From Cladosporium halotolerans (Eukaryota): a stretch of 64,000 nt of DNA. The position numbers and the translations under genes are program-made. The DNA lies in the NCBI RefSeq assembly GCF_011745625.1, contig NW_027191472.1, forward strand, positions 186,001 through 250,000. Reading direction: 5' to 3'. Below the pieces are notes generated by a model, which was given only the letters and a program-made list of their open reading frames with translations, had not been told where the DNA came from and ran no database searches. Of this stretch, positions 1 through 9,918 are shown one piece after another (within the stretch, counting starts at the first letter, position 1; the number at the start of each line of letters is the position of its first letter).

Positions 1-1
1 A

Positions 2-919
2 CCAGTCGTCTGCAACGAGAACGTCGGCGAGAATCTGCAAGACCACGTTTATATGCCGCTGGGCTTCGAAGTCAACCCCGGCATCTTCACACTAGACGAC
101 TTAGCGAACGAAACGATCTTCAACGCGGCGTTCGACGAGTACCTCGCCAACGCCACAGGCCCGCTGGCTACTGTGGCCCTCGGCGGAGCTCTGCTCTCAA
201 TGGCCCAAGTCATCCCCTCAAATGAAACATACGCCGCCTTCGCCAAAGACATCAAAGCCCTGACCTCCAACACCACCCACCCCGGCCTCGCAGCCCAACA
301 CGACATAACCGAACGCAACCTCCTCTCCCCCCACGAAGCCGCCGCCCAACACATGAACACCGCCAGCGGCATGAACCCGGCTTTCGCCAACGACACGACC
401 AAGCTCTTCGCCGCGCCCACGGCAGGAAACTACTTCACCATCCTCGCCGTCCTCGAACACCCCTTCTCCCGCGGAGCAGTGCACATCACGTCGTCCAACG
501 CCTCCGCACACCCAGAGATCAACCCCAACTACCTCTCGCACCCCGCCGACGTCCTCGCGCTCTCGCACATCGCCCTGCACGTCCAGGACGTGCTCGCGCG
601 CACGCCGCCGCTGGCGGATTTACTCGTGGGCAACGGCACGGTTCTGCAGCCGGCGTATGAGCGGTTGACGGATGAGAATGTGCATAGTGAGATTAGGAGG
701 CTGGTGCAGAGCGAGTATCACCCCGCGGGGACGTGTGCGATGTTGCCGAGGGAGAATGGGGGCGTGGTGGATGAGAAGTTTAGGGTGTACGGGGTTCGGG
801 GATTGAGGGTTGTGGACGCGAGTGTTGTGCCGTTGCTGCCGAGGGCGAATTTGCAGACGCTGGTTTATGCGGTTGCTGAGAGGGCGGTGGGGTGGGTTTT
901 GGAGGAGTTCGGGCTGTAG
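2..919 (+). CDS. GMC (glucose-methanol-choline) oxidoreductase, C-terminal part; 5' end lies before the window
   Basis: Frame is open from base 2 (PVVCNENVGENLQDHVY). GMC motifs: VGENLQDH, PFSRGAVHI, INPNYL, YHPAGTCAM (catalytic His), VVDEKFRVYGVRGLRVVDASVVP and ANLQ (His/Asn pair). Stop at 917-919. Confidence 0.93.
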   Translation, partial: PVVCNENVGENLQDHVYMPLGFEVNPGIFTLDDLANETIFNAAFDEYLANATGPLATVALGGALLSMAQVIPSNETYAAFAKDIKALTSNTTHPGLAAQHDITERNLLSPHEAAAQHMNTASGMNPAFANDTTKLFAAPTAGNYFTILAVLEHPFSRGAVHITSSNASAHPEINPNYLSHPADVLALSHIALHVQDVLARTPPLADLLVGNGTVLQPAYERLTDENVHSEIRRLVQSEYHPAGTCAMLPRENGGVVDEKFRVYGVRGLRVVDASVVPLLPRANLQTLVYAVAERAVGWVLEEFGL

Positions 920-945
920 GGTTGTTTGTGGTTCGTGAGTGTGGC

Positions 946-3717
946 CTAGCTAGGCCCTGTTGTATCTGAATCTGCGTCCGACGGCGTCGAGGAAGTCCAG
1001 TCTTGGAGCAATCGCACGACAGTCACAAGCCTTGTCTTCCGCGCAACTTCTAGCGCCGTGCCGTACTTTCCAGACCTGTAGTGCATGTTCGCCCCATGTT
1101 TCAGCAAGAGTTGCACCAGTTCAGAGTCGTCGTTAGCCGATGCCGCAATGAGAGCAGTGTCATACTTTCCGCCAACGGCGTTTGCATCTGCTCCAGCTTC
1201 TAGCAGCATCCGAGAGATGGAAACACGGAGATCCAAAGAACTACCAAGGTGGTTCGAGCGTGTTGCCCAGGGATCCTGCCGAGAAGCCAGCTTGTGCAAA
1301 AGTGTACACCCGAAAAGGTCCCTTACGTTCGCATCTCCGCCTCTCGAGAGCAGCAGCGGCAAAACTTCCGCATTCAAATATTCGACAGCTGCGGATAACC
1401 GCGTATCGTAGAGAAGCTGCGGGGGATTGACCTGGGTATCCAAGATCACCTGCAAAGTTTCTCCAGTGCAGTTTCGGGCGGCCGCCTTGAAAGGATCGTC
1501 ATGATCCCGACAGTCGTTTACGCTCCACTGTGGTATTTCCCCAAACTTCGCCATTACACCGACAAAGCCATGCCGATTTTTTCGATCTGTTCGCGTAGCG
1601 TACGCCAGTATTGGTACTGGGAGCCCTTCACCGATCCGGACACCAGCGTCCGCCCCAAGCTGGAGAAGTAATTCTAGTAACTCAACATCACCATATAGCA
1701 CTGCACGGTCAACCACTCTTCTCCGCTGTTGCAGAACACTGTCTGAAGATGCACCGTACTGTAAAAGAATACGTGCATTTCCTAGGTCGCCGGACAATAA
1801 AGCGGCCAATAGAGGTTCAGAATGTGGCGGGTTGGGATCTGCTCCGTTTTCTAGGAGCAATCGCACGTCCTCGGGGTCCCCCCATGCATGTGCTGCAGTG
1901 ATTAGATAGCGATGCTGGCCTCCGCAGAACGCGTTCAGGTCGATTTTGGCGTCCCATTGACCTGATGTGATCATAGGGGATAGTGCAGAACCATGGTCGA
2001 GGTCAGGGGGGAGACGGGCCTGCGCGTAGCGTTGCAAAATGGCTCGAGCGAGCAATTTGCAGCCATACTGGAAAGCTAGATAGACAAAAGTAGTCGAATT
2101 TTCAGCTAACTCGACCTCCGATCCATGTCTCTTGCGATTTTTCCTGATGATCCAAGTCCGCCACGGGAATTGATCAAGGCACTCGAGGTCTAGGCATCCA
2201 CCAACGTAAGCACCTTCCATGTGGTAGTAGACCTGGTGCATGGCGTACGACAAAAAGAAATACCTTCTGGGAATGAATCTTGTATCGGCCACGGACTTCC
2301 CTGCGTTCGGTGACAAGTACGTCTGGCAGCACTTTGCCAGATCCGCATGGCTGCACCCTACCGCGGTCTCTTTCTTGCGATTAGTGATTTGAGCAAGACC
2401 AGCGTCGAGCATGTATTCTCTGACAAATTCGTGAATGAATTGTGCTCTGTAATTGGACCCAGATGCAGCGAATTCCACGAGCCCTCTCGAGGCGTTGAGA
2501 ATAAAGGATTCCATATCATATTGCACGGTATATTCGCGTTCCACATTGGACCCCTGGAATCGGTCGGTACTGTGACGTACTGCAGAGTACAGTTCTGCAA
2601 CGTTGAGTGAGGCCCGAGCAAGTGAAACAAGCTGAACAGTGCGAATCAGGCGATCGTCAGGGTCTTCGATGATGTATGCAAGCAGTCCCTCAAGCTCTTC
2701 TGGGATGTCATTGAGGGCTGCAATCAGTTCAGACCGAGTACAGCCGCGGTCAGCTTTTCCATTAAGCCTGCGTACGACAAGCACGACCCAGAGGAAGACT
2801 TGCGAAGATCGGTGACAAATGAGCTTTCCAAGTTCCTGGCTGAATGCTCCATTGCGGAGTTTGAGCTTATTCTTCACGTACTCCGAGATATCGCGCATCT
2901 GCCCTGTCTGCTCGTCAAGACGAATCTCTTCGCATTTTCGAAGGGTTATTTGCGGATAGTAGCGGCTCGCCAGACAGATGTACAGTTGCCAATTCCGGGC
3001 GTGTGCTTGTTGACCGAATTCTTCAAAATGCTCGAGTGCCTCCCGTATCTCCTCCTCCGGACATTCGTCAAGAGCGTCAATCAACATATTGATAGGGTGG
3101 CGCGATTCTCCTAGGTTTGAAAAGGCTTTTCTCCAGAGATTCCGCAACAATTGCACTGGCCACCCTTTTTCTGCGACATCCGGAGGTGCATGTGAGGGGA
3201 ACATTGAGCGGAGGGCCGGGAAAGACTGTAGGGCCTGTGACAAAATAGATCGGTACATTACCTCCACAGATTTCTCAAGCTCATGGCCGCGGGCGTTGAA
3301 GAAGAACGAGATGACCGTTTCGTTTGGGTGAGCTACTTTGATGTACTCATAAGCACATTTCATTATGGTCGACTTGCCCGACCCAGCTTTGCCCTTGATC
3401 CATAGCAGGTTGGAGTTAGTCTCGCGGTACGTAGAATCGCGCCACCTACTATACTCAGGCCTCTGGAAAAGCCAGGTGCAGGTGTCTGCGTGTGGCGGGT
3501 CGATACTGTCTAGGCGAAAGTCCATGAAACCGAACTTCAGGGCTTCGACAAAGTCAAGCAGCTGACCACCGGCGGTGGGCCGCTCTGAATTGCTGGCCAC
3601 GTTGGTGATACTTTGATGCTCGATGTAGTTGTTGCCATAGTGCACTCTAGCTTGGCCCTGCGCCACATTTGAAGAGTAGCGTGCTCCTGACTCTGCCCTT
3701 GTTTGAGGCTCCTCCAT
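946..3717 (-). CDS. Fungal NLR-like protein: N-terminal amyloid motif, NACHT NTPase, ankyrin repeats
   Basis: Intronless ORF with first ATG at 3717 (MEEPQ). Pre-NACHT TCTWLF..PEYSRW, Walker A WIKGKAGSGKST, Walker B LIDALDEC, helical VFLWVVLVV and FIHEFVREY. C-terminal ankyrin repeats, e.g. GGKYDTALIAASANDDSELVQLLLKHGAN. Confidence 0.92.
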   Translation of the reverse strand: MEEPQTRAESGARYSSNVAQGQARVHYGNNYIEHQSITNVASNSERPTAGGQLLDFVEALKFGFMDFRLDSIDPPHADTCTWLFQRPEYSRWRDSTYRETNSNLLWIKGKAGSGKSTIMKCAYEYIKVAHPNETVISFFFNARGHELEKSVEVMYRSILSQALQSFPALRSMFPSHAPPDVAEKGWPVQLLRNLWRKAFSNLGESRHPINMLIDALDECPEEEIREALEHFEEFGQQAHARNWQLYICLASRYYPQITLRKCEEIRLDEQTGQMRDISEYVKNKLKLRNGAFSQELGKLICHRSSQVFLWVVLVVRRLNGKADRGCTRSELIAALNDIPEELEGLLAYIIEDPDDRLIRTVQLVSLARASLNVAELYSAVRHSTDRFQGSNVEREYTVQYDMESFILNASRGLVEFAASGSNYRAQFIHEFVREYMLDAGLAQITNRKKETAVGCSHADLAKCCQTYLSPNAGKSVADTRFIPRRYFFLSYAMHQVYYHMEGAYVGGCLDLECLDQFPWRTWIIRKNRKRHGSEVELAENSTTFVYLAFQYGCKLLARAILQRYAQARLPPDLDHGSALSPMITSGQWDAKIDLNAFCGGQHRYLITAAHAWGDPEDVRLLLENGADPNPPHSEPLLAALLSGDLGNARILLQYGASSDSVLQQRRRVVDRAVLYGDVELLELLLQLGADAGVRIGEGLPVPILAYATRTDRKNRHGFVGVMAKFGEIPQWSVNDCRDHDDPFKAAARNCTGETLQVILDTQVNPPQLLYDTRLSAAVEYLNAEVLPLLLSRGGDANVRDLFGCTLLHKLASRQDPWATRSNHLGSSLDLRVSISRMLLEAGADANAVGGKYDTALIAASANDDSELVQLLLKHGANMHYRSGKYGTALEVARKTRLVTVVRLLQDWTSSTPSDADSDTTGPS

Positions 3718-5802
3718 TCTGACGTGTAATGTTGAGCACCCTGATCCCAAACCAGCGTTGGGCCTTACGTCTTGAGAAACTAGATGCTGTGAGGTGTGCG
3801 CTCAGCCTGATCGGGTTTTCATAACCACACCAAAAGCGTCATGTCAGCCGACGACTGCGGAAGCTCCTGCGCAGCATTTGCCGCGTCGGCTGCATGATGG
3901 CTGCATTATCACGTCCAGCTGCATGGGTCGGTGTTCCGCCCAACAAGAGGCCAATCGTCATCTTCATACGAGGAACTACGTGGCGAGGCAATTGATCGAT
4001 AGCGCCACATTGCTGGTAAAGAAGGAGGCATTCATGGCCCATAGAACCAGAACATTTCGATGGGAAGAACCAGGAAACGAAAAGGACAACGTGATACGCG
4101 AGGCTTTCGTCCTTCGAAGATACCGTACGCTGATTGGCTCCAGTAAGGACGCTAGGACCTCCAGGCTAAGTTCCAGTTCCTTCAAGTTGGTCCGATCTTC
4201 GGATTCCCACTAGACCTTCAAGAAATCGCAGCCAAAATTCTATCACTCTTCGAACGCCTTGTGATCTGGACAAATACGCCAACGGAACGCGTGCTAGGAT
4301 GGTGAGACCAGCTTTTTGCTCCACAAGTGCAGAGAGCACGTGGTATTCGGAGCTGCAGGTGGCCAGCCTGTGCTAGGAGCGAACATGCTCCTCGCGGCGA
4401 AACCAACGTGCATACCCGAATACAGCTGTCTCTGCATCCGACCACGTGGGTCTTTGTCTAATCCGAGCGTCATGACAGAATTTTGCAGTCTTGGTCATGC
4501 TAGGGTCACTTTATTCAAAGCATACTTCACCACTCTGTCATGCCCTGAAAGGCTCCTTCGAGGGGTCTTGGCGGAGCTTTTGATGAGAGGGTGCTTGTCT
4601 AGAGCCTTGTAAGCGCCCTAGTTTTCCTGTATACTTTACTGCATGATGATTCCAGACCTCCTTTCCGGGGTCCCTACTGGCGTACTTCGGTCTTCCTGAG
4701 CGTCGACAGCTTACCTTTCTCGATGCAAAATACTAAACGCAGGCATGTGCATTACGGTACCCCGGGCTTCTATTGTCGGCTGATGCAGTTGAAATGATGC
4801 GGCGCAGCCCTGTACTCGATGAAATATCACGCGGAAAATGGTTCCGCTTCGTTTATGTCGACGAGTCCACTGCAGGTAGCTGAATGCCATCATCTGCAAA
4901 AGCGGAATCCTCCACACCGATTGCAGCCTCTTTCCGAGACTTCATTGGACAGGTAGCATGCGTAAGCAGCCACCTGGTTGCAAGTTATTCCACAGGTGTC
5001 GGCTGCCAGGGACAGCCTTCAATCTTGTCCTTGCATGCAGCTTGAGATATCTGCAACAATGAAGGTTATTTCCATGGAAGCACGCATCGACTCGGTGTAA
5101 GAAGGGAGGAAGCGAAAATAAAATTCTCTGGTGTTTACAGAAACTATTGCTTCATGAAGCATATTCGTCAAATCTTCCGAAGTCTGGCCCCTAACAATTG
5201 TATTTTCCATTCGTATACGTCAATCAATCTTTACAAACATTTACGAGGGGGATCGATGCGGCCTCTGACGACCCCGGACCAGTCGCATAACATTGATGCT
5301 CGCCGGAAGCAGTGCGACACGATTTTGTCAATGTGGCTGCAGGATGGCTTTGCGGGTCATGTACCACCTGTTCGGTGCGGCATTGCTCCAAGGAGGTTAT
5401 CAGTCATGAGATTGAAGTCAAAAGGGACGCTTTGAAAAACCGTCATGAACGACTGTACGCTCATGCAAATCTCCAGTATCAACCAGCAAGCTGTCTGCTC
5501 ACGATTATTCGGCGTAACAGCCTAATGCATATCATGATTTCCCTCGAACGCAAGCCTCATGTGGGTCGGAAGCATAAGAACTTGGCACTCATCTCAATAT
5601 CCCTAACAGGTAAGCTGACGAGGCATCGGCACAAAAGAAGACTTTGGCCAGTGTCTCATGACAACAGGATCCAAGCCATCCCGCAGAAGTACAAAGAGAC
5701 GTCTATAAAGTCTCGCGTTATTGCACCACTCTGCCCATTTCTTGTCAAGAACTACCTTAGCCTGCCTTCCTGAGTCGAAAACATCACTCCGCTCCAGTCA
5801 CC

Positions 5803-6407
5803 ATGCATGCAATTTCGATCGTTGCGAGCTTCCTGCTTCTGGCCCTTAGCGCCAAAGCTCTGCCTCCCGTCAAAGATACATCATCCAACGGTTGGGTGAT
5901 CGAAAGCCTCAGTCAGTCCGAACACAAATTGGCCTATTTGCTCTCCACCAAGGACTATGCCGCCCTTGATGAGGTCATGACCCAAGACATCATCTACGAC
6001 GCGACTGATCTGGGCGAGTATGGCGGCAAGACCGAGGGCCTCACCGAAACCGTCGCTGGTCTTCGTGCCAACGGCGAGGGAGCAAAGGTCGAAGCGATCG
6101 TCTCCAATCTTTTGCTCCTCGATTTGATCTCACCGAAGAAAGCGAAGACAAGCACCTAGTATGCTTGCTGCTGTTGCCACACGCAAAGGATGCCTGCTGA
6201 CAGAATCACAGCATCACCAGGTCTCGCTGGGTTGAGAATGCCCTGGATGACATCAAGGAAACATACCGTGTGTTCTACAGATGCGAAGACATCTGGGTCC
6301 TGGAAGGCGGAGCCTGGAAGCTGCAATATAGCAAAGTGTACAACATGGGCTACGGAGTGGAGGCGCCATACTACGGTAAAACCGGTCCCACCAACGAACA
6401 GGACTAG
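5803..6407 (+). CDS. Small secreted SnoaL/NTF2-like fold protein (2 exons: 5803-6158, 6212-6407)
   Basis: Signal-peptide-like N-terminus MHAISIVASFLLLALSAKA. Intron 6159-6211 (GTATGC...GCTGAC...CAG) joins the frame to YITRSRWVE...YRCEDIWVLEGGAWKLQYSKVY. The KDYAALDEVMTQDIIYD segment and terminal D.WV..GGAWK are SnoaL_4-like. TATAAA at 5704-5709. Confidence 0.75.
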
Positions 6408-7616
6408 ATCGTGCTTGCGGGAGGTTTCGCCGTTGCTCAGTTGCGATGCCTTGACATGCGCATTTATCGAACCATGGCATGAAGGCAGCAAACGAATCCT
6501 GTCCAAGCATTACTGAGATAGTTCCGTTATCTCAATGAAGTATCGGATTTGTCCGATCCGTCCGTCACAGAGTATCCACATGTCTCAGCGAAGATGTCGG
6601 TCCTTGCAGGTTTCCAGTGAACACAACCGCATCCAGAGAGTGACACGTGCCCAACATATGCTGAACTTCGAGCTGTCGGTATGTGATATGATGGAGACGC
6701 ACCTCGTGGCGCCAGCACCTCATTAGGGTGCTCCGAACTGTCCAAGAGCATGAAAGATAAGCTGCTGAACAGCCCAGGCCCTTGAGTTACCTCTTCCCTC
6801 TCACCAGATGCATATCACGCAATATTTAAGAGTGTTATATCAAAGCTCAGACGCTGAAAGCCCAATGTTAGTGGCGCGAGGTGTTTGTTGGTATCTGGCC
6901 TCGTTGCTGTATGCGAAGAAAAGGGTCAGGCCGAGCGGAGCCGAAAGCCCCATTTTTTGCCCGAACTCCTGAGCGCACAATTCAACCAACGTCTTTACAT
7001 CACCCACGATCCAAGCACATCGCGCGAACGTCAATGTGCCTCCATGCTTTGTAAAATATTGACCGAGCTTGCTATCCGTGTGCGATCGTGACTGCTGCGT
7101 CTTGAGCGCCGCTCACCACGCCACGTCTGCACGTACCTCCTCCTTCGACTATCATCACCGGCTGGGCCATGTTGAAAGGATGGCCAGAGAAACGAATCTA
7201 AGGCTTGCCAGTGGGACGTTATGTAGGCATTTGGTGCCAAAATAATCGCTTCCCTGAACTTTTATCGCCATCACATTGTGGAAGGCCTGGTTGTAACCTG
7301 TAGGCTGCCGCTTCCAAATGGCTGGGCCCTACCTGAAGGATCCATGCTGGGCGCACCGGCCATGATCCACACGCTAACACGACCTTAATCGAATTACTAT
7401 CGACAGTGCGTATCTCTGTTCAGCATGTGCAACAGAGTGCTTTTGTCGAAGACTCCTTTGTTGCACTCCATGCCCGTGGGGGATCAGCGACGATGTTATA
7501 GGACTTGGTCCGTCGAAGATCTATAAAACCCAATTGGAAACGCTCGTAAGTGAAGCAATCAAGCAGTCTTTCGTTGATACCAGCTTCTTTCCTTTTTCAA
7601 TTTTCTGTGTGGCAAT

Positions 7617-9918
7617 ATGCCGGACCTTAAATCATGCCTCTGGTTGGCTATGCCTCCGACAGCTTTGCTGAGTTTTTCTTCTTTGATCACATATCTCGTC
7701 TTTCGCCTTTACTACCTTGCTACTGCTCAGCGAGTTCAACACGAGCATCCCGATCACGACGTCAGGACGAACGGACTTCGCACTATCGCGCTACCTTGGG
7801 TCTTCTTCGGTTTAGAGATCGTCATTCTACGTAAGTACTTATGACAACAATACAGCAAGAGACTAGCACGACGCTAATATCTCCAGTCCCCAATGCAATT
7901 CCATACATTCTCCGATTACTCGCAATCAAGCCAGCGAAGCGCGAGAAGGAGTACCTCACCGGCGACGATGTACCGAACATCGATGTGCTGATCACAACCT
8001 GCAATGAGGATGTCCACGTCGTAATGGATACCATTCGAGCTGCTTGTGTGCTTGACTATCCTGCCGACAAATACCGTATCTTCGTCTGTGACGATGGTGC
8101 TTCCAAGCCTTTGCGAACTGCCGTCGAGGCACACGCGCTGCAGCATACTCAATTGCATTACACTGCGCGTATCAAAGGTCCGGTGAAAGACTACAAAGCC
8201 GGGAACCTAAACGCTGGGCTCAGCTACTCTGGGTCTTTGCATCCACTGTCCTTCTCCGTCCCGAATTCGAAGGAAGGTCTTGTTGTGAATGAGAAGGAGT
8301 CCGAGTCACCGCAGACCGTCATAGCGACCGACACCGATGCAACCGGCAGTACAGTTGATCTTGGTATCGAACACGGAGTCCCGATGTGTGTTGAGCTGGC
8401 ACCGTGGGGCCAATATGTTGCAGGACTGGATGCAGACATGATTCCTGAGCCGCATTGGCTACGCACATTGGTACCGCACATCGATGCTGATCCCAAATGT
8501 GCTATGGTCTGCCCGCCTCAGGTAAGTAAAATGCTCAAACGATTTGGGATAAAGAAACTGATCTGACGCTTCAGACGTTCTATGACATTCCTCTGAATGA
8601 TCCATTGACTCAAACGATGGCACATTTCGCCGGCATGACGGAAGTCATCAACGATGCTTTAGGCCATGCAGATTGCCTAGGTTCTGGCTATGTCATGCGT
8701 CGTGCTGCTCTTGAATCCATTGGAGGTTTCCCCACGGAGTCCCTCTCGGAAGACGTATGCTGTTCTGCAACGCTACTTGGGGCTGGTTGGAAGACCGCCT
8801 TTGTTGCCGAAGCTGTACAGTATGGATCTGTACCGGAGTCTTATCTTGGACACGTCAAGCAGCGAACCCGCTGGGTGAGTCGATGGCAATGGTGAAGCTC
8901 GTTGCCCATAAGTACTGATTTGGTAATGCAGTGGATCGGCCACATTCAAACTGCCATGCTTTTCAAACTCCGCATGGGCTCCCGCGCAAAACATCTTAAC
9001 CTTCGACAAAGGCTAGCAGGCTTTGCGTTTGACCTGCGACAGCTTGTCCAGATCCCCATTGCGCTGAGCTACATCATCATCCCATTTGTGCTGCTTTCGG
9101 GCAGCCCGTTGGTCTTCTGGGCGACAGGGTCTCAGCTGAAGATCCTCATCCGCCTCGTATCGATCTGGAGTGCCTGTCATTGGCTTCACAACGGCGTCAT
9201 GGGTGCCATTGCCGGTAAGGGCAACGACTTCACCTCGTATGATGTCCGCATGGCTTCGTACGACTCTGAGATGGAGCAATGGTTGAGTCCGTGTAAGTTG
9301 CTCTCAATCTGGAAGCTTGACGATCGACTGACTTGAGTAGACTACTTCGTCGCTTTCATGCGGTCTTTCATCCTACCGAAAGCGCTTGGTGGCGTCGCTA
9401 CAGGCTTCAAGGCTTCCGGCAGCATCTCCAGCGACCTTCAAGAGCGATCTGCAGCTGACCGAGCGCCGCTTTTACGCAGACTCAGAGTCACGCTCTTCTC
9501 TCATCATGCCATCGTGCACTTGATCTTCGTCTCCGCGTGTGTCGCCGGCGTTGCACTCAACTTCGCTCGCACCTTCAGCTCTGAAGATATCCCAAATCTA
9601 TGGGACACTACTATCCTCACAACCACCAGGGAGCAACTCATTTTCCTCATCACCCGGATGGGCTGGCCGCCACTATTCTGGCTGCAATTTGTCGCATCCG
9701 CACTGACTCCCATTACGTACACCTTCTGGCCGCCTACTCAACCTGATCGCGAGGAGCTCCTCGATCGAGATGAGAAGACTGGGCTCGCGTATCCCAAGCC
9801 GGAAGCGAGAATGCCGAGCCGGACGGCGGCTGGCGGGTGGCGGTACGGGAGGGCGGCTCTGTCGATGGTCTACACTCTTGTCCTTTTTGTGGCTAATGAA
9901 TTGGTGGATCTGAATTGA
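7617..9918 (+). CDS. Processive glycosyltransferase family 2, cellulose-synthase-like (fungal CelA/Tft1-type glucan synthase); 5 exons
   Basis: Motifs in order: DVLITTCNED, DDG, KAGNLN, LDAD, PPQ-TFY, SED, QRTRW (QxxRW). Hydrophobic N- and C-terminal segments. GT-AG introns at about 7831-7886, 8522-8574, 8875-8931 and 9293-9340. TATAAAA at 7522-7528. Confidence 0.9.

Follow-up and report, generated by a model that had tools for sequence, protein, structure and literature searches.

At positions 946..3717 of the window, the 64-kb stretch of Cladosporium halotolerans DNA analysed here, the minus strand carries an NLR gene consisting of a single ORF of 923 amino acids with no internal stop codons (stop codon at 946-948), in which a short motif, a linker, a NACHT module of the NPHP3_N type and ankyrin repeats follow one another. 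Residue n of this ORF lies at positions 3717-3n+1..3717-3(n-1). The NACHT-type NTPase module (Pfam NPHP3_N, E 4.5e-30) occupies residues 78-252 (2962..3486, minus strand) and is also matched, weakly, by the NACHT model when Pfam is run on the whole protein. Within the module lies a Walker A sequence, G-K-A-G-S-G-K-S, at residues 109-116 (3370-3393, minus strand), whose G109, G112, G114, K115 and S116 are invariant in an alignment of whole homologous proteins. About residues 605-895 (1033..1905, minus strand) form an ankyrin-repeat region, recognised by Pfam matches to Ank_2 (E 6e-20), Ank, Ank_4 and Ank_5, which is presumed to be the ligand sensor. As in a fungal NACHT NLR (STAND NTPase) with an ankyrin sensor, a NACHT module with a P-loop precedes repeats that form a superstructure; our query shares its layout with its orthologues P0001, P0002 and P0003. 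Since Pfam, run on the whole NLR, finds no domain N-terminal of residue 78, the leader is short and carries neither a HeLo nor an enzymatic domain, as the initial annotation had claimed. The nearest named relatives for the gene are Cladosporium species.

The same annotation had pointed to a HET-s/NWD2-type peptide at 3625-3684 in this leader. That span is part of the intact ORF, where it corresponds on the minus strand to residues 12-31, and it overlaps the putative r0 amyloid motif that profile matches place at residues 10-30 (3628..3690, minus strand; positions 1-21 in the numbering of PMC4518210), the one motif copy near the NLR N-terminus. The motif is followed by a conserved extension visible in the alignments, Y-I-E-H-Q (residues 31-35; 3613..3627, minus strand), which is typical of the NLR-side copies in the clade of the query; Y31 and Q35 are nearly invariant in the alignment of whole homologous proteins. 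A linker that is variable in the alignment with P0003 (residues 36-77; 3487..3612, minus strand) leads to the NACHT module, conservation resuming at residues 55-77 in the alignment of whole homologous proteins.

We found the core of the motif just upstream of the NACHT module in 72 of the 120 best NACHT homologues listed. In P0003, an orthologue 41% identical to the query, 16 of 25 motif residues are identical, against 1 of 10 at residues 1-10 and 5 of 19 at linker residues 36-54. The motif is better kept than its flanks between orthologues this far apart, which argues for selection on the motif. Among 28 related metagenome loci, five have the motif, each time at the start of the NLR, and no second copy was found in the flanks of these five (several of the 28 contigs are short). 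A word-index search with the 60-aa leader against proteins of 106-2000 aa, in a collection apparently without the source genome, gave 16 candidates, two of which match, both being orthologous NLRs. In 18 of the 120 listed homologues of the NACHT clade, PF01048 (PNP_UDP) is fused N-terminally where the motif would be; none of the 120 listed carries a HeLo fusion.

A profile of the NLR motif, searched against 1.84 billion proteins, returned 162 matches at E <= 1e-3. Of the 135 new matches among the 150 listed, we scanned with Pfam the 93 that have at least 140 aa. The 93 comprise 43 NPHP3_N NLRs and 13 proteins with a HeLo domain (12 exceeding the Pfam cut-off) and no PNP_UDP protein. Nine of the 13 HeLo proteins are full-length with two C-terminal motif copies, and these double repeats were retrieved by the NLR profile at library-wide E <= 5e-4. 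The second (r2) copies of the effectors are identical to query residues 11-33 at 11-13 of 23 positions, and tblastn aligns r2 of P0225 to the query motif with 54% identity over 24 aa. For one of the HeLo proteins, P0224, the match to 2wvn, a HET-s HeLo structure, has E 4.7e-63 and that of its C-terminus to HET-s(218-289) (2kj3/2rnm) has E 0.0072; judged by sequence, P0224 is clearly a homologue of Podospora HET-S. Four further matches are neither NLRs nor HeLo proteins: P0121 has three motif copies ahead of ankyrin repeats and weakly matches a zinc finger; in P0127, two copies occur without any Pfam domain; and in both P0192 and P0216 a single copy precedes a ubiquitin-like ULD_2 domain, to which P0192 adds C2H2 zinc fingers.

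Two profiles single out the leader from the 2104 six-frame pieces of the window. An HMM built from 68 homologous NLRs, with the query and P0001-P0003 excluded, gives the NLR N-terminus 39.7 bits (E 2.7e-11), the runner-up piece scoring 8.7 bits. An HMM built only from the 18 r1/r2 C-terminal repeats of the nine Pfam-confirmed HeLo proteins gives it 30.2 bits (E 3.1e-8), with a runner-up at 9.6 bits. At the level of sequence the leader is a real conserved motif, more than a chance resemblance. The match to a Pfam HET-s profile that had been proposed as a check did not come out: PF17108 (HET-S, the NWD2-type N-terminal motif) scores 14.8 bits against a gathering cut-off of 24.3 (E 0.028), over the second half of the model (positions 11-23), and PF11558 (HET-s_218-289) gives no match at E <= 10. 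When each of the 72 NLR motif pieces was scanned with Pfam, the only recurring families were PF11558 (20/72) and PF17108 (17/72), every other family matching at most two pieces. PF11558 is reported in PMC4518210 to match just 38 of 155 double-repeat proteins, and the Pfam HET-s models are therefore known to be narrow. In PDB, the HET-s(218-289) entries 2kj3, 2rnm and 2lbu are not among the matches of the motif profile at E <= 10; the matches that it does give (phosphatases, a capsid protein) score at most 12.5 bits and were set aside as chance. The 50-aa leader has no PDB match by sequence. The description of the locus as a NACHT-ankyrin NLR with a single HET-s-related repeat of the NWD2 type is nonetheless backed by homology: by the conservation in 72 of 120 listed homologues, by the HeLo-repeat HMM and by the retrieval of double-repeat HeLo proteins.

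In the numbering of PMC4518210 the key residues of the query are Y14 (position 5), N17 (8), A19 (10), G21 (12), R24 (15), V25 (16), Y27 (18), G28 (19) and N29 (20). The glycine at position 19 (G28) is invariant in the 72 NLR pieces and in the 18 HeLo repeats, and the positive charge at position 15 (R24) is an arginine in 70/72 and 15/18 of them, respectively. Hydrophobic positions 5, 10, 16 and 18 are filled (Y14, A19, V25, Y27), which makes four of five, position 8 being Asn (N17), with Val at position 9; Asn is found at position 8 in 4/18 HeLo repeats and 8/72 NLR pieces. Position 20 (N29) fits the rule of a large polar residue, and position 22 is Tyr in 48/72 NLR pieces. Position 3 is Ala (A12) in the query, not the large polar N, Q or H that PMC4518210 requires; Ala stands there in 6/72 NLR pieces, and His is the commonest residue (19/72 NLR pieces, 10/18 HeLo repeats). 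Overall the query agrees with 7 of the 9 consensus positions of PMC3321046.

On its 3' side the NLR faces a GMC oxidoreductase gene, the 3' part of which lies at 1..919 (plus strand; GMC_oxred_C at 2-919, E 1.2e-32). This gene is convergent with the NLR, running toward its stop codon, and, though next to it, does not belong to the system. On the upstream side, 3718..5802 (no strand) is a stretch without a recognisable gene: Pfam recognises no coding piece among the stop-to-stop pieces of 3718-5800, and the motif HMM, tblastn and the HeLo HMM reveal neither a HeLo relic nor a motif copy in 3718..5802. The neighbours are those first described, a GMC oxidoreductase and about 2 kb in which no gene is recognisable. 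The first gene that can be recognised beyond that stretch is a small ORF at 5803..6159 (plus strand), whose N-terminus is hydrophobic and which weakly matches a SnoaL-like family (SnoaL_4, E 4.5e-4, under the gathering score); it lies outside the system. There is no second motif copy in the NLR or in the 64-kb window, nor any piece of HeLo, HeLo-like, SesA or PNP_UDP type in the window, and tblastn of the HeLo effectors against it gave, at E <0.3, solely matches of effector repeats to the NLR motif region, within 3472-3735. No adjacent effector gene with the motif was found, the 3' side of the NLR being visible for 945 bases only. The motif HMM, Pfam, tblastn and the HeLo HMM all agree with the earlier statement that the flanks hold no HeLo/HeLL gene or two-repeat motif. 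A HeLo-like fragment beside an NLR in two other loci (L020, L022) was dropped as a candidate; that NLR has a hydrolase-type N-terminus and the fragment looks degenerate.

An adjacent cognate effector is common, not obligatory: PMC4518210 counts it in 98 of 155 cases, and in the NLR13 and NLR12 classes of PMC9815663 a motif-bearing neighbour lies within 20 kb of 16/131 and 4/110 NLRs, respectively. The absent neighbour is unremarkable, because by the counts of PMC9815663 the majority of NLRs with a motif have no neighbour within 20 kb that carries one. For the family of HET-s-related motifs, partners that are unlinked or have not been seen are already on record.

Copies of the gene in other samples differ in integrity. 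A contig of run X10, 98% similar, has a 1-base deletion at 2005 (codon 571), and P0001 (97% identical, from a cluster of five sequences) loses the frame at the same site and stops after 581 aa, lacking the ankyrin repeats; a frameshifted allele of the NLR without these repeats is thus present in other samples. The copy in run X2, on a contig 99% identical, is intact, with no indel, as is the 923-aa copy of the window. The X10 contig has loose ends at 1024 and 4299; a different flank was considered there and rejected, since the same locus simply continues with greater divergence. In runs X17 and X18, guessed to be RNA, the contigs are scattered, of low depth and located both within and beyond the NLR gene; they show no transcript, start or strand.

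The closest described parallel is NWD2 of Podospora anserina: residues 3-23 at its N-terminus serve as the template for the amyloid fold of HET-S, a HeLo protein (PMC3321046, PMC4344463). Our query resembles this pair in being an NLR without an N-terminal effector domain and with one 21-residue HET-s-type unit near its start, in retaining the last-arch Gly, the Arg four residues earlier and the hydrophobic pattern, and in that its motif profile finds two-copy HeLo proteins, including the HET-S homologue P0224. It differs in having no adjacent het-S-like gene, in its sensor, which is made of ankyrin repeats instead of the WD40 repeats of NWD2 (compared by description), and in two residues, the Asn of the first ladder position being replaced by Ala and one core position being Asn. 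According to PMC4518210, N, Q or H at position 3 sets the HRAM subfamily. The query departs from the canonical HET-s subfamily (HRAM1) in having Ala, not Asn, at this position and in giving no direct match to HET-s(218-289). With HRAM3 (His at position 3), as presented in PMC4518210, it shares G19, R/K15 and the hydrophobic residues at 5, 10, 16 and 18 and differs by Ala at position 3 and Asn at position 8; a single NLR-side copy with fewer charged residues is a further likeness to the HRAMs of that paper. The position-3 rule given there, the only basis for such a placing, would put the motif family nearer to the His-3 (HRAM3-like) subfamily than to canonical HET-s, even though Ala stands there in the query.

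Wojciechowski et al. (2022, PMC9815663) describe HRAM-type motifs at the N-termini of ascomycete NLRs in the classes NLR12, NLR13 and NLR40, mostly starting at residues 5-9, for which non-adjacent partners are suspected. Our query is alike in its N-terminal HRAM-type motif and lack of a neighbouring partner, compared by description. In that survey the partners of the HRAM3-like NLR12 motif are PNP_UDP proteins with one copy each, the pairs being rarely adjacent, with NLR-side and effector-side copies at 5.7:1, and NLR40 is listed as an HRAM class with no effector found. The sigma motif of the het-eN/sesA/sesB system and the PP-motif offer a more distant likeness: in them too a short N-terminal prion-like motif of the NLR is common to the effector C-terminus, and het-eN is a NACHT-ankyrin protein. 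The motif of the query is, however, of another kind. Sigma and PP motifs were rejected, as N-x-G-x-Q-x-N-x-Q-x-G is absent from the window and neither a Pfam sigma nor a Ses_B match falls on the leader.

We consider it probable that residues 10-30 of this NACHT-ankyrin NLR are a single NLR-side (r0) HET-s-related amyloid motif (HRAM), which would signal to a HeLo-type effector by templating. We identify the motif as an r0 HET-s-related repeat because the NLR profile retrieved two-copy HeLo proteins, one of them a clear HET-S homologue. That amyloid forms and acts as a template, that a partner exists and of which type it is, we infer from the analogy with NWD2/HET-S. By this analogy, binding of a ligand by the ankyrin repeats would cause the NACHT module to oligomerise; the clustered N-terminal motifs would then fold cooperatively into a beta-solenoid-like amyloid nucleus, and this nucleus would serve the two repeats (r1/r2) at the C-terminus of the effector as a template for the same fold, whereupon the effector would kill the cell. 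The effector would most likely be a pore-former of the HeLo type, with its gene at another place in the genome.

Motif and templating might be the same and the partner enzymatic, a nucleoside phosphorylase-like PNP_UDP protein that has one motif copy at its C-terminus and whose gene is distant from the NLR, as PMC9815663 describes for the HRAM3-like NLR12 class. We regard this as unlikely. The 18 of 120 listed clade homologues in which an N-terminal PF01048 replaces the motif, with none listed carrying HeLo, combine with the rule of 'two alternate architectures' (PMC3321046) to point to PNP_UDP as the effector domain of the clade. The 93 scanned matches speak the other way, with 13 HeLo and 0 PNP_UDP proteins, the 42 matches under 140 aa lying outside the scan; PNP_UDP proteins may perhaps have failed to reach the 150 listed, because a single-copy match scores below a double one. 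Less probable still is an orphan receptor, whose effector was lost or never accompanied this paralogue, the NLR being one that is decaying, or does not signal, within a birth-and-death family. The lack of a partner within 64 kb, the 1-base deletion of X10 at 2005 with P0001 off-frame there and ending at 581 aa, and the example of NLR40, an HRAM class without a known effector in PMC9815663, speak for such a receptor. On the other hand, the ORF is intact over its 923 aa in the window and the copy of run X2 has no indel, working pairs are commonly unlinked, and the motif is better kept than its flanks between orthologues of 41% identity.

That the leader is a conserved non-amyloid peptide, serving as an autoinhibitory segment, a degron or a docking site and resembling HET-s in composition only, we judge very improbable. 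The sub-threshold Pfam scores, the lack of a direct HET-s(218-289) match and the two unfilled consensus positions would fit it, but the HMM made from HeLo repeats only separates the peptide from the rest of the 2104 pieces by a 20-bit margin, the NLR profile retrieves the C-terminal double repeats of HeLo proteins at library-wide E <= 5e-4, and the invariant Gly19, Arg15 and the hydrophobic pattern are common to the NLR and HeLo sides. We also give little credence, if somewhat more than to a non-amyloid leader, to a partner of the clade that is not a pore-former but a protein like P0121, P0127, P0192 or P0216. Were NLRs like the query to template proteins of this kind, amyloid signalling in these fungi would extend to transcription or to ubiquitin-like pathways, in addition to membrane lysis or in its place.

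Read as an r0 motif directed at a HeLo-type effector, the leader makes the query and the HeLo repeats, which are 50-57% identical, a candidate cross-seeding pair. Both Pfam HET-s models miss this motif subfamily, and a profile made from the NLR side finds its HeLo proteins. With the query, the known set of fungal NLRs thought to act through amyloid templating gains one more receptor of the NACHT-ankyrin type.

The receptor is encoded by a single unbroken reading frame on the reverse strand (946-3717, 923 aa). Residues 78-252 match Pfam NPHP3_N (E 4.5e-30), which is the NACHT-type NTPase module found in fungal NLRs; Pfam also reports a weak match to NACHT itself and ankyrin repeats at about residues 605-895, and finds no domain before residue 78, in agreement with the initial annotation, which had described a leader devoid of an enzymatic or HeLo domain. 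The peptide quoted there as an amyloid motif is exactly what window positions 3625-3684 encode (residues 12-31 of the NLR), so that the observation on the leader is real and was read correctly.

To follow the motif in related receptors we used residues 1-260 as query, which gave 1819 candidates, 474 of them at E ≤ 1e-5; the counts given here rest on the best 120 of the 474. A regular expression describing the motif core (a small residue and R/Q/K, a spacer of two or three residues, and G-N/H/D/P) located it just upstream of the NACHT module in 72 of these 120 listed homologues. When the query was aligned with 71 different pieces of 40 residues from them (P0053 and P0054 yield an identical one), Gly28 proved invariant and Arg24 was kept in 70 of the 72 pieces. 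P0003, one of the closest relatives of the NLR, is identical to it at 378 of 923 residues overall and at 16 of 25 in the motif, against 1 of 10 in residues 1-10 and 5 of 19 in the linker, which makes the motif an island of conservation within the start of the protein. An HMM built from the alignment minus the query and its closest relatives (P0001-P0003), run on 2104 six-frame pieces of the window, gave 39.7 bits for the NLR start (E 2.7e-11) and 8.7 bits for the second-best piece.

Scored against Pfam, the 50-aa leader matches only PF17108 ('HET-S', a 23-residue NWD2-type model), over the second half of the model and at 14.8 bits for a cut-off of 24.3, and PF11558 gives no match; by Pfam's own standard the leader is thus outside the HET-s models, and the check proposed initially stays below the threshold in this form. 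The HET-s-related reading is supported by three other comparisons. When the 72 pieces were scanned singly, PF11558 matched 20 (best E 0.005) and PF17108 matched 17 (best E 5e-4), every other family being confined to at most two pieces. Searched against 1.84 billion representative proteins, the profile of the alignment gave 162 matches at E ≤ 1e-3; among the best 150, which were detailed, 15 were NLRs already listed as homologues and 135 were new. The Pfam scan covered 93 of the new matches (the other 42 are all shorter than 140 aa) and found 43 NPHP3_N NLRs or fragments and 13 HeLo-domain proteins, of which 12 exceed the gathering score. Among these 13, nine are full-length (274-330 aa) and carry two C-terminal copies of the motif: P0135, P0170, P0172, P0176, P0203, P0224, P0225, P0232 and P0249. 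P0225 is labelled by NCBI as a Chaetothyriales protein, with relatives in Rhinocladiella, Cladophialophora, Exophiala and Fonsecaea, one of them annotated 'Heterokaryon incompatibility protein s'. Finally, an HMM for which the 18 r1/r2 repeats of the nine HeLo proteins were the sole input recognized the query leader with a score of 30.2 bits (E 3.1e-8), the next window piece reaching 9.6 bits.

When the effectors were compared with the window by tblastn, the matches below E 0.3 were solely those of repeats to the motif region of the NLR (3472-3735), the best from P0143 (E 4.8e-4), with the r2 copy of P0225 at 54% over 24 aa (E 0.003); residues 11-33 of the query share 11-13 of 23 positions with effector r2 copies. 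Against the PDB, the alignment profile did not retrieve the HET-s(218-289) chain at E ≤ 10, so that the motif is tied to canonical HET-s indirectly, by way of intermediates like P0224. This protein matches the HET-s HeLo structure 2wvn (E 4.7e-63), and the amyloid entry for HET-s(218-289) (2kj3/2rnm/2lbu) is matched by its C-terminus (E 0.0072).

The HRAM definition in the available text of PMC4518210 asks for Gly at position 19, R/K at 15 and hydrophobic residues at 5, 8, 10, 16 and 18, the polar residue at position 3 setting the subfamily (N, HRAM1; Q, HRAM2; H, HRAM3). With position p as residue p+9, the query reads A3, Y5, N8, A10, G12, R15, V16, Y18, G19 and N20; it shares G19, R15 and the hydrophobic positions 5, 10, 16 and 18 but differs at A3 and N8. 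Asn at position 8 occurs in 8 of 72 NLR pieces and 4 of 18 HeLo repeats. In NLR pieces and HeLo repeats alike, position 3 is most often His (19/72 and 10/18), and the query satisfies 7 of 9 consensus positions in the numbering of PMC3321046, as far as that text is available. On these grounds we place the motif near the His-3 (HRAM3-like) group by the position-3 rule, the His having been lost in the query's clade.

Several other matches to the profile have unusual architectures. P0161 (184 aa) has no HeLo match but ends in two copies, the second of which shares 13 of 23 residues with the query and likewise lacks His at position 3, making P0161 the most query-like effector-side candidate among the matches listed. 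In P0143 (525 aa) a HeLo domain (224-400) lies between copies at 47-70, identical to the query at 12 of 23 residues, and 441-465; perhaps an NLR start and an effector gene are fused here, or were wrongly merged in the gene model. P0121, the best match (72 bits), begins with a weak zinc-finger match and has three tandem copies at 252-337, with ankyrin repeats after them, and P0127 has two copies at 372-448 and no Pfam domain. These two are alike in the repeat region only and could represent either novel effector-side architectures or gene models that were merged. The non-NLR proteins P0192 and P0216 carry a single near-N-terminal copy (80-105 and 60-93) and, after it, a ULD_2 domain of the ubiquitin-like type (E 2.5e-12 and 6.3e-13), with C2H2 zinc fingers also in P0192, a combination not met in the available text of PMC4518210, PMC9815663 and PMC3321046.

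The initial annotation had found neither a HeLo gene nor a two-repeat motif in the flanks, and this holds for the whole 64-kb window: no second copy was detected by the regular expression, the alignment HMM (next-best site 9.1 bits) or the HeLo-repeat HMM, and no HeLo domain by tblastn or HeLo HMM. The 3' neighbour is, as annotated, a GMC oxidoreductase, convergent with the NLR, with 945 bases seen on that side. Upstream, 50 stop-to-stop pieces from 3776-7841 gave only a weak SnoaL-like match in Pfam. Over 7001-64000, the 150 longest pieces (≥ 114 aa) of 172 of at least 110 aa contained no HeLo, HeLo-like, SesA, PNP_UDP or patatin domain. Ordinary genes are found there (GT2 glycosyltransferase, actin-related protein, Nop56/58, GEN1/XPG nuclease, HIT, methyltransferase, SWIB, protein kinase, two SDRs, MFS transporter, histidine phosphatase, DUF1168, Rpb4 and Doa1/PLAA with WD40). 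Since the content of 7835-64000 is of housekeeping type, the NLR lies at the margin of a block of conserved genes, outside any NLR cluster. The flanks of five related motif-bearing metagenome loci also lack a second copy. In two related loci, L020 (13693-13839, reverse strand) and L022 (5209-5355, reverse strand), a related NACHT-ankyrin NLR is followed downstream by a short piece resembling the N-terminus of HeLo (32 bits), in frames that appear broken; the NLR there begins with a hydrolase-type domain in place of an amyloid motif.

In the available text of PMC4518210 an NLR adjoins 98 of 155 HeLo effectors, and in that of PMC9815663 a motif-bearing neighbour within 20 kb is given for 16 of 131 NLR13 and 4 of 110 NLR12 receptors; on these counts, a missing linked partner is the common case. 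Non-adjacent pairs are also reported in PMC9815663, with an NLR to effector ratio of 5.7:1 in the HRAM3-like class. Both HeLo and PNP_UDP proteins are plausible partners. The effectors of the HRAM3-like class in PMC9815663 are, in the text available, PNP_UDP proteins with a single copy, and 18 of the 48 motif-less proteins among the best 120 homologues, all within P0065-P0119, have an N-terminal PNP_UDP (PF01048) in place of the motif, HeLo being recorded in none of the 120. Such a replacement is known as 'alternate architecture', and it hints that the clade's effector may be of PNP_UDP type. Our own profile search favours HeLo, which it retrieved in 13 of 93 scanned matches.

Variants of the NLR locus occur in two sequencing runs. 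The whole of 900-4300 is present in run X2 with 36 differences and no indels. A 98%-similar contig of run X10 spans 1024-4299; it shows 71 differences and has lost a single base at 2005, in codon 571. P0001 (97% identical, a cluster of 5 sequences) loses frame at this same codon, ends at 581 aa and has no ankyrin repeat; the window and X2 copies are intact. Nature thus contains both intact and truncated alleles of the NLR, which is what a birth-and-death NLR family would be expected to show. In the signalling we envisage, a ligand would bind the ankyrin repeats and lead to NACHT oligomerisation, which would crowd several N-terminal motifs so that they adopt a beta-solenoid-like amyloid fold; seeded by this nucleus, the effector's r1/r2 region would be converted and the effector thereby activated. 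Our results suggest that this NLR is a further, ordinary member of the known NLR/HRAM amyloid-signalling systems, in which its signalling role is predicted from sequence.
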